From: a virus | Lineage: Duplodnaviria > Heunggongvirae > Uroviricota > Caudoviricetes | Length of the DNA stretch: 5,125 bases | Virus record (IMG/VR): IMGVR_UViG_2690316166_000021 | Strand: one strand, 5' to 3' | Part shown: positions 1,443 through 4,051 of the stretch, piece by piece | Layout of the letters: every line of letters begins with the position of its first letter | Numbering within the stretch: position 1 is the first letter of the stretch | The notes under the pieces: generated by a model | What the model was told of the DNA's origin: nothing | Database searches by the model: none | The model's input: the letters and a program-made list of their open reading frames with translations, nothing else | Position numbers and translations under genes: made by a program

Positions 1443-3885
1443 NNNNNNNNNNNNNNNNNNNNNNNNNNNNNNNNNNNNNNNNNNNNNNNNNNNNNNNNNN
1501 NNNNNNNNNNNNNNNNNNNNNNNNNNNNNNNNNNNNNNNNNNNNNNNNNNNNNNNNNNNNNNNNNNNNNNNNNNNNNNNNNNNNNNNNNNNNNNNNNNNN
1601 NNNNNNNNNNNNNNNNNNNNNNNNNNNNNNNNNNNNNNNNNNNNNNNNNNNNNNNNNNNNNNNNNNNNNNNNNNNNNNNNNNNNNNNNNNNNNNNNNNNN
1701 NNNNNNNNNNNNNNNNNNNNNNNNNNNNNNNNNNNNNNNNNNNNNNNNNNNNNNNNNNNNNNNNNNNNNNNNNNNNNNNNNNNNNNNNNNNNNNNNNNNN
1801 NNNNNNNNNNNNNNNNNNNNNNNNNNNNNNNNNNNNNNNNNNNNNNNNNNNNNNNNNNNNNNNNNNNNNNNNNNNNNNNNNNNNNNNNNNNNNNNNNNNN
1901 NNNNNNNNNNNNNNNNNNNNNNNNNNNNNNNNNNNNNNNNNNNNNNNNNNNNNNNNNNNNNNNNNNNNNNNNNNNNNNNNNNNNNNNNNNNNNNNNNNNN
2001 NNNNNNNNNNNNNNNNNNNNNNNNNNNNNNNNNNNNNNNNNNNNNNNNNNNNNNNNNNNNNNNNNNNNNNNNNNNNNNNNNNNNNNNNNNNNNNNNNNNN
2101 NNNNNNNNNNNNNNNNNNNNNNNNNNNNNNNNNNNNNNNNNNNNNNNNNNNNNNNNNNNNNNNNNNNNNNNNNNNNNNNNNNNNNNNNNNNNNNNNNNNN
2201 NNNNNNNNNNNNNNNNNNNNNNNNNNNNNNNNNNNNNNNNNNNNNNNNNNNNNNNNNNNNNNNNNNNNNNNNNNNNNNNNNNNNNNNNNNNNNNNNNNNN
2301 NNNNNNNNNNNNNNNNNNNNNNNNNNNNNNNNNNNNNNNNNNNNNNNNNNNNNNNNNNNNNNNNNNNNNNNNNNNNNNNNNNNNNNNNNNNNNNNNNNNN
2401 NNNNNNNNNNNNNNNNNNNNNNNNNNNNNNNNNNNNNNNNNNNNNNNNNNNNNNNNNNNNNNNNNNNNNNNNNNNNNNNNNNNNNNNNNNNNNNNNNNNN
2501 NNNNNNNNNNNNNNNNNNNNNNNNNNNNNNNNNNNNNNNNNNNNNNNNNNNNNNNNNNNNNNNNNNNNNNNNNNNNNNNNNNNNNNNNNNNNNNNNNNNN
2601 NNNNNNNNNNNNNNNNNNNNNNNNNNNNNNNNNNNNNNNNNNNNNNNNNNNNNNNNNNNNNNNNNNNNNNNNNNNNNNNNNNNNNNNNNNNNNNNNNNNN
2701 NNNNNNNNNNNNNNNNNNNNNNNNNNNNNNNNNNNNNNNNNNNNNNNNNNNNNNNNNNNNNNNNNNNNNNNNNNNNNNNNNNNNNNNNNNNNNNNNNNNN
2801 NNNNNNNNNNNNNNNNNNNNNNNNNNNNNNNNNNNNNNNNNNNNNNNNNNNNNNNNNNNNNNNNNNNNNNNNNNNNNNNNNNNNNNNNNNNNNNNNNNNN
2901 NNNNNNNNNNNNNNNNNNNNNNNNNNNNNNNNNNNNNNNNNNNNNNNNNNNNNNNNNNNNNNNNNNNNNNNNNNNNNNNNNNNNNNNNNNNNNNNNNNNN
3001 NNNNNNNNNNNNNNNNNNNNNNNNNNNNNNNNNNNNNNNNNNNNNNNNNNNNNNNNNNNNNNNNNNNNNNNNNNNNNNNNNNNNNNNNNNNNNNNNNNNN
3101 NNNNNNNNNNNNNNNNNNNNNNNNNNNNNNNNNNNNNNNNNNNNNNNNNNNNNNNNNNNNNNNNNNNNNNNNNNNNNNNNNNNNNNNNNNNNNNNNNNNN
3201 NNNNNNNNNNNNNNNNNNNNNNNNNNNNNNNNNNNNNNNNNNNNNNNNNNNNNNNNNNNNNNNNNNNNNNNNNNNNNNNNNNNNNNNNNNNNNNNNNNNN
3301 NNNNNNNNNNNNNNNNNNNNNNNNNNNNNNNNNNNNNNNNNNNNNNNNNNNNNNNNNNNNNNNNNNNNNNNNNNNNNNNNNNNNNNNNNNNNNNNNNNNN
3401 NNNNNNNNNNNNNNNNNNNNNNNNNNNNNNNNNNNNNNNNNNNNNNNNNNNNNNNNNNNNNNNNNNNNNNNNNNNNNNNNNNNNNNNNNNNNNNNNNNNN
3501 NNNNNNNNNNNNNNNNNNNNNNNNNNNNNNNNNNNNNNNNNNNNNNNNNNNNNNNNNNNNNNNNNNNNNNNNNNNNNNNNNNNNNNNNNNNNNNNNNNNN
3601 NNNNNNNNNNNNNNNNNNNNNNNNNNNNNNNNNNNNNNNNNNNNNNNNNNNNNNNNNNNNNNNNNNNNNNNNNNNNNNNNNNNNNNNNNNNNNNNNNNNN
3701 NNNNNNNNNNNNNNNNNNNNNNNNNNNNNNNNNNNNNNNNNNNNNNNNNNNNNNNNNNNNNNNNNNNNNNNNNNNNNNNNNNNNNNNNNNNNNNNNNNNN
3801 NNNNNNNNNNNNNNNNNNNNNNNNNNNNNNNNNNNNNNNNNNNNNNNNNNNNNNNNNNNNNNNNNNNNNNNNNNNNNNNNNNNNN
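1443..3885. other. masked/undetermined sequence (2,443 N); content unknown
   Basis: Run of N characters; the track ORFs 1312..4074(-) and 1409..4120(+) are open only because N translates to X. Confidence 1.
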
Positions 3886-3951
3886 ATTCTGCGCTATCTC
3901 CCCGACTGTCGCCGGTTCGGTAACGCTTAATTCATTAAACACCACTCTGGC

Positions 3952-4051
3952 NNNNNNNNNNNNNNNNNNNNNNNNNNNNNNNNNNNNNNNNNNNNNNNNN
4001 NNNNNNNNNNNNNNNNNNNNNNNNNNNNNNNNNNNNNNNNNNNNNNNNNNN
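3952..4051. other. masked/undetermined sequence (100 N); content unknown
   Basis: Run of N characters. Confidence 1.

Follow-up and report, generated by a model that had tools for sequence, protein, structure and literature searches.

Unread DNA behind a tR'-like terminator in a lambdoid late region probably spans a common methyltransferase-tRNA module

The slot behind Q and tR' is known to carry Shiga toxin genes as well as other morons, and an unreadable stretch at this location invites speculation about its content. In one Stx phage among the loci compared here (L001), the tRNAs and stx occupy this same place. A different type of cargo is exemplified by M.EcoGII, a prophage-borne, non-specific adenine methyltransferase of 349 residues that is silent in the lysogen and has a very similar homologue in the methyltransferase of phage 1720a-02 (Murray et al. 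2018, PMC5778455). In the locus analyzed in this study, the DNA hidden behind the terminator most probably matches a widespread module that comprises the gene for a conserved protein of 65 residues (hyp65), a methyltransferase gene, tRNA genes, and the start of an ORF of 108 or 117 codons (ORF108/117), as judged by comparison with sequenced relatives.

The window, that is, the whole stretch of 5,125 nt that was analyzed, contains exactly three runs of N according to a regular-expression count, of 229, 2,443, and 100 nt (Table 1), and the only bases legible between positions 1443 and 4051 are those of an island of 66 nt. This interval had been flagged in a sequence-only reading of the window, whose figures of 2,443 N plus 100 N and a 66-bp island proved exact by our count; the 229-nt run was absent from that reading. 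As it stands, the flagged interval is missing sequence, with neither a biological feature nor a statistical signal. The slot is not entirely masked, as that reading had it: in its distal part, the end of ORF108/117, a DUF3927 gene, an STnc100 sRNA, and an iraM-like gene are all legible.

Table 1. Features of the window, followed by the arrangement of the corresponding hidden DNA in the relative L034
Feature	Position	Strand	Basis or content
nanS-p/DUF1737 esterase gene, first 18 codons (MAFKHYDVVRAAPPSDLA), running off the window	1..56	-	Translation
iraM-like anti-adaptor gene, convergent with the late operon	151..486	+	NCBIfam NF007393
229-N run	605..833		Regular-expression count
STnc100 prophage sRNA	889..1079	-	Rfam RF02076, full-length model
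DUF3927/TciB-like small membrane protein gene, 43 aa	1145..1276	-	Pfam PF13064, E=1.7e-27
Conserved 108/117-aa ORF, C-terminal 42 codons plus stop	1312..1442	-	Translation; phrog_2873
2443-N run	1443..3885	.	Putative, by synteny, in order of late transcription: rest of hyp65, methyltransferase, tRNAs, N-terminal part of ORF108/117
hyp65 (conserved 65-aa TrmB-like winged-helix protein), codons 11-32 visible (ARVVFNELSVTEPATVGEIAQN)	3886..3951	-	Translation
100-N run	3952..4051	.	Putative: first 10 codons of hyp65, ribosome-binding site, upstream spacer
tR'-like intrinsic terminator	4134..4159	-	Terminator scan: 7-bp G+C stem, 6-nt loop, T6
Putative PR'-like promoter: TTGATT, 16-nt spacer, TG-n-TAAATT	4207..4234	-	By eye
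Q antiterminator gene, lambda-type, 273 aa, largest ORF of the window	5061->4240	-	ORF list and profile matches
L034, hidden coordinates: ORF108 start	1-196		
L034, hidden coordinates: tRNA-Arg(UCU)	334-410		
L034, hidden coordinates: tRNA-Arg(UCG)	424-500		
L034, hidden coordinates: tRNA(CAU)	508-583		
L034, hidden coordinates: methyltransferase	624-1682		
L034, hidden coordinates: hyp65	from 1833		

The Q gene product matches the Antiterm family of Pfam (PF03589, E=6.2e-55), the PHROG "anti-termination protein Q-like" (phrog_127), and the Q-lambda structure in the PDB (7UBM, E=1.5e-40), and a look-up of the exact protein in public assemblies gave 7505 index blocks. Since its gene lies on the minus strand, late transcription and the slot run from right to left, with Q immediately upstream of the slot on the same strand. 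The promoter-like element agrees with the consensus at 8 of 12 positions, which is under the threshold of the promoter scan; its placement after the stop codon of Q and ahead of the terminator suggests that it represents PR'. In the terminator itself, the stem occupies 4159-4140 and the T run extends to 4134, and the hairpin was recovered in both the MFE and the centroid fold, with a z-score that alone is not significant. The N stretch starts 82 nt past tR'. The earlier placement of the interval after Q and tR' is thus borne out by the Q profiles and the terminator (4159-4134), and its placement after PR' and before the lysis genes is probably right too, with nanS-p and lysis genes found downstream in relatives.

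On the other side of the large gap, the end of ORF108/117 belongs to phrog_2873 (E=3.8e-70); the ORF can be read completely in the relative L027 and found no match in Pfam or NCBIfam searches. The neighboring DUF3927 gene falls in phrog_1470 ("TciB-like") and is labelled tciB in phage JLK-2012. STnc100 scores 136.3 bits against RF02076, compared with a gathering score of 47, and ends at an intrinsic terminator (919-900), a further terminator being predicted by the same scan at 542-521. The iraM-like gene reaches 162 bits with NF007393 (cutoff, 121), is annotated as IraM in relatives, and encodes a protein with an identical copy in S. sonnei genomes. In relatives, the DUF1737/SASA esterase at the far left is followed by holin, lysozyme/endolysin, and Rz genes, and the lysis genes would accordingly be expected beyond the left end of the window, downstream of nanS-p.

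Many loci from IMG/VR, E. coli, and E. albertii match the island at 100% identity, and an exact 30-mer taken from it occurs, among genome contigs, only in E. albertii NBRC 107761. The hyp65 gene to which it belongs can be read completely in L027 and L026. Its product is a member of phrog_331 and is labelled "TrmB family transcriptional regulator" in several sources; the match to TrmB in Pfam is weak and below the cutoff (E=0.0026). Positions 4052-4133 of the window match the spacer upstream of hyp65, and the gene lies directly after tR', the position characteristic of the methylase-tRNA module.

For a comparison of what other genomes carry here, about 120 related loci were assembled from E. 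coli complete genomes, phages, IMG/VR contigs, E. albertii, and exact-protein look-ups, the IMG/VR contigs being picked by a 40-mer across the junction of tR' and spacer and by the methyltransferase protein. The end of ORF108/117 at the left gap edge and the 66-nt island served as two anchors. Because the island and the left flank exactly anchor many sequenced relatives with one conserved module, the hidden content can be inferred. In 19 of the 21 loci having both anchors, the DNA between them measures 1934 to 1938 nt; the remaining two lie on one contig, in which IS186 has inserted and 180 nt are duplicated, so that the distance is 3459 nt. Among the 15 loci with exact 30-nt anchors, this DNA is 95.4 to 100% identical and the gene order is the same. 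Likewise, the best 60 E. coli complete genomes show a span of 2552 to 2558 nt for a query covering 1143-4235, and all 60 have a DNA-methyltransferase, tRNA-Arg, and tRNA-Ile annotated between the anchors, along with DUF3927. Over the visible pieces, identity to E. coli complete genomes reaches at most 96.8%. When the exact Q and IraM proteins were looked up, all loci obtained were of the mEp460 or S. sonnei type, which are without the methylase module and so left the gap unfilled.

Past hyp65, every locus that continues (94 loci) encodes a DNA methyltransferase of 349 to 352 residues, matching PF01555 (7.9e-42), after which come a tRNA whose anticodon is CAU and either one or two tRNA-Arg genes (UCG, UCU). 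The module thus holds two or three tRNAs, tRNA-Arg(UCG) being optional. The enzyme is 94.8% identical to the methyltransferase of phage 1720a-02 and may be regarded as a putative N6-adenine methyltransferase of the M.EcoGII family, the likeness to M.EcoGII being drawn solely through this phage homologue. With both anchors matching relatives that hold one conserved and known module, the statement that nothing can be inferred from N no longer applies. Nor did we see any sign of novelty in the interval, which had been singled out as the likeliest site should the window contain a novel system: in relatives the anchors bracket a common module, and what lies under the gap would appear to be common and already described.

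The N runs most probably represent assembly gaps of unreliable size. From the island to the base that matches window position 4052, all 84 related loci have 66 to 69 nt, versus 100 N in the window; the 1934 to 1938 nt found in 19 of the 21 loci with both anchors stand against 2443 N; and two relatives with tandem STnc100 copies have 314 nt where the window has 229 N. As these lengths are at odds with the spacing in relatives and match none of them, the runs look like gaps in an assembly, and 100 N is what is conventionally written for a gap whose size is not known. A spacing of 2443 nt was absent from the approximately 120 loci, from the best 60 E. coli genomes, and from a 60-row spread of E. 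coli genomes; the E. coli search had been repeated with a longer query and a joining limit of 2646 nt, the first limit being 2048 nt. The module occurs two or three times, in near-identical form, within single genomes, and draft contigs often end in the middle of it (L035 and L044, with single-N joins). The Ns are most likely scaffold gaps of unreliable length, left by a short-read assembly of a genome with several near-identical module copies. Ends of IS600 elements were also considered as gap edges and rejected, since in L027 and L031 the end of IS600 is 131 nt left of the counterpart of window position 834, and in L024 the element lies 22 nt past the counterpart of 1442.

Taken jointly, the best explanation is that sequence is missing in the form of scaffold gaps from a lambdoid late region and that the gaps lie over the common methylase-tRNA module, which we consider probable on the basis of the comparisons above. 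Some observations count against it. Assemblies do not usually contain a contig of only 66 nt flanked by gaps, approximately 506 nt of the main run and 34 nt of the short run exceed what any relative has and are unexplained if the lengths are true, and the slot is mosaic in general, with variable cargo beyond the tRNAs.

A doubtful, though not negligible, alternative is that the scaffold is chimeric, its contigs deriving from different prophages of one poly-lysogenic genome, in which case the slot as drawn would not be real. The visible pieces do differ in their best relatives: positions 1-604 are closest to E. coli 042 (99.5%), positions 834-1442 to Shigella-type loci (99.7 to 100%), and positions 4134-5125 to the mEp460 type (99.1 to 99.9%). 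Furthermore, the same 86 nt end the first of these pieces and begin the second, and the window has lost 154 nt between 21-nt repeats (at 66-86), a deletion matched in no relative; a 46-mer over its junction was not found among metagenome or viral contigs. The existence of genomes with two or three copies of the module would also allow such a misjoin. On the other hand, the junction between methylase-type and mEp460-type sequence at 4134 lies within one contiguous piece and is common to 14 IMG/VR contigs, so that this mosaic at least is real. In L027 the visible pieces B, C, and D follow one another as they do in the window, with identities of 99.7 to 100%, and tandem STnc100 layouts are present in E. 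albertii as well as phage vB_EcoS-733R4.

It is improbable, in our estimate, that the N runs are masks of true length, covering the module and, in addition, about 0.5 kb that none of the sampled relatives has, such as a small moron ORF, one more tRNA or sRNA, or a fragment of a mobile element. Such a mask would account for the excess of 2443 over 1934 to 1938 nt, N masking is known for some stored sequences, and the slot is a hotspot for insertion, as exemplified by IS186 in L027, IS1 in L004, and IS200C in CFT073. It would, however, require three independent indels within DNA that is otherwise 99 to 100% identical, the short run has exactly the length conventionally given to gaps of unknown size, and the 2443-nt spacing is seen in none of the approximately 120 loci or the 60 plus 60 E. 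coli genomes. Should the lengths nevertheless be true, some 0.5 kb between tR' and ORF108/117 would be peculiar to this copy and absent from about 120 relatives, a prospect that we hold to be slimmer still; it would leave room for one small accessory gene or RNA inside the methylase-tRNA module.

Cargo past the tRNAs is mosaic among the 94 methyltransferase-bearing loci. About 20 of them continue with ORF117, DUF3927, and STnc100, which is the type of the window; many pass straight to STnc100, as does phage Nil3; approximately 9 carry tciA (TerB), as in JLK-2012; and stx2AB is found in 6, as in Stx2_EH1910. That the window hides an stx operon is nevertheless very unlikely, given the sequences next to the gap. 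None of the 21 loci bearing both window anchors contains stx, and conversely the ORF108/117 anchor is found in none of 7 stx loci. A literature search for the layout of the S. dysenteriae stx locus found nothing. The idea that the hidden DNA is toxin cargo such as stxAB, and is hidden for that reason, can be given hardly any credence: while the same Q-hyp65-methylase-tRNA backbone does hold stx2AB in Stx2 phage EH1910 and in 6 or 7 IMG/VR loci and a rearranged locus would be compatible with the length alone, loci with stx have the toxin genes right beside the STnc100 region and are without the ORF108/117 anchor, the 506-nt surplus is far below the 1.24 kb of the operon if the methylase module is present, and the island shows 100% identity to non-Stx loci as against 89 to 97% to Stx loci. 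A deliberate hazard mask over stx was likewise rejected as a default, as the stx2AB genes of L001 and of several IMG/VR loci can be read. The main value of the analysis may thus be one of caution, in that anchoring puts this copy in a common non-toxin backbone.

Returning to scaffold gaps over the common module as the preferred reading, the position of the module has a possible bearing on its expression. The final T of tR', at 4134, is exactly where similarity of the window to mEp460-type and S. sonnei-type sequences comes to an end. Since similarity ends there in prophages without hyp65 and methyltransferase, the module behaves as a cassette placed directly behind the terminator. Lying just past tR', it is expected to be off in the lysogen, with Q-modified polymerase alone able to read it, as its position and the literature suggest. 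After induction, Q would render RNA polymerase resistant to the terminator, and only then would the module be transcribed. The methyltransferase might subsequently methylate replicating phage DNA broadly and thereby shield the progeny from restriction in the next host, and the tRNAs, of which the one with a CAU anticodon may be of the ileX/ileZ type, could supply the rare AUA, AGA, AGG, and CGA codons of the late genes. Transcription would then continue through the STnc100 terminators (919-900 and 542-521) towards nanS-p and lysis. An edge of the module at the end of the T run behind tR' would offer a simple explanation for the published silence of M.EcoGII-type genes in lysogens. Reading of the module solely by Q-modified polymerase fits the silence reported for M.EcoGII in lysogens (PMC5778455).

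Among described systems, mEp460, S. sonnei-type prophages, Nil3, and JLK-2012 share with the window the same or a related Q, tR', tRNAs, DUF3927/tciB, STnc100, and nanS-p in this order. They depart from it in different ways: mEp460_ev081 and the S. sonnei loci are without hyp65 and methylase and have only 623 nt between the bases matching window positions 1442 and 4134, Nil3 has the STnc100 region directly after the tRNAs, and JLK-2012 carries other tRNAs and tciA-tciB. Stx2_EH1910 (LC567834.1) has Q (89.6% DNA identity), the 65-aa gene, the DNA methylase, and the tRNA cluster in order and, after the cargo position, an STnc100-like segment, iraM, and nanS-p. At the cargo position itself, however, it has stx2A-stx2B, whereas the visible cargo of the window is ORF108/117 and DUF3927, and unlike in Stx2 phages, the anchors beside the gap match non-Stx loci.

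Like M.EcoGII and M.EcoGI, the methyltransferase of the relatives is encoded by E. coli prophages and has a similar size (349 to 352 aa); also as in these enzymes, it is apparently of the beta class, with an N-terminal DPPY, a C-terminal FxGxG, and a PF01555 domain, the motifs being seen in the translation from L027. Non-Stx E. coli prophages (300709, NZ_CP025903.1; ST131 strains; IMG/VR loci L034 and L035) differ from the window in having 1934 to 1938 nt in place of 2443 N, 66 to 68 nt in place of 100 N, and a Q that is 92 to 94% identical, the Q of the window being of the mEp460 type (99%). In other respects they are collinear with the four visible pieces, the island being 98.5 to 100% and the left anchor 99 to 100% identical, and their annotation lists a hypothetical protein of 65 aa, DNA-methyltransferase, tRNA-Ile, tRNA-Arg, DUF3927, and IraM.

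The last T of tR', the intrinsic terminator behind Q (window position 4134), is the exact boundary of the module found in relatives. In mEp460_ev081 and S. sonnei loci, which lack the cassette formed by hyp65 (a conserved gene for a weakly TrmB-like protein of 65 aa) and the methyltransferase gene, identity to the window is 99% until this base and is lost beyond it. Because these cassette-less prophages diverge right after the last T of tR', sequence comparison suggests that the hyp65-methyltransferase cassette is exchanged in and out at the terminator.

In Shigella-type relatives, the accessory slot downstream of tR' is interrupted by insertion sequences (L027, 2456-3901 and 1-1261; L024, 7937-9199). 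IS186 lies within the tRNA cluster of L027 and is accompanied by a 180-nt duplication, which accounts for the extra tRNA-CAU copy at this locus. An IS600 copy is found at a distance of 131 nt from the base that corresponds to window position 834. In the S. sonnei genome represented by L024, IS600 interrupts the conserved ORF108/117.

The IMG/VR viral "contigs" L035, L044, L036, and L038 consist of several draft contigs linked by single Ns and hold two to three copies of the Q-methylase-tRNA module from one genome; the base matching window position 4658, inside Q, is the break point of many drafts. In the IMG/VR contig L026 (1790-6055), the hyp65-methylase-tRNA(CAU) module is directly followed, on the opposite strand, by unrelated phage structural genes, including a terminase-small-subunit-like gene and a ClpP-type protease/capsid fusion. 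Either this contig is misjoined or the arrangement is another mosaic.

At positions 66-86, upstream of the iraM-like gene, 154 nt (and 12 nt more) that all relatives have are missing from the window. In relatives, the 21-nt repeat CACCATCTGAAAAATAATTCT stands on both sides of the missing 154 nt, and the junction left by their loss was not found in metagenome and viral collections. Either the deletion is genuine, or k-mers collapsed during assembly. S. sonnei genomes encode a protein identical to the iraM-like product; most contigs on which this protein is located in public assemblies are <5 kb long.

Features of the iraM-STnc100 segment (window coordinates)
Feature	Position	Strand	Remarks
iraM-like anti-adaptor gene (RpoS stabilizer family)	151-486	+	Convergent with late operon
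STnc100 prophage sRNA, full length	889-1079	-	RF02076, 136 bits
Second STnc100 copy, 3' 86 nt only	519-604		Adjoins 229-N run (605-833)

The partial STnc100 copy is identical to the matching part of the full-length one. E. albertii (L039) and phage vB_EcoS-733R4 likewise have STnc100-like copies in tandem; there, however, the spacing is 314 nt and the second copy has diverged.
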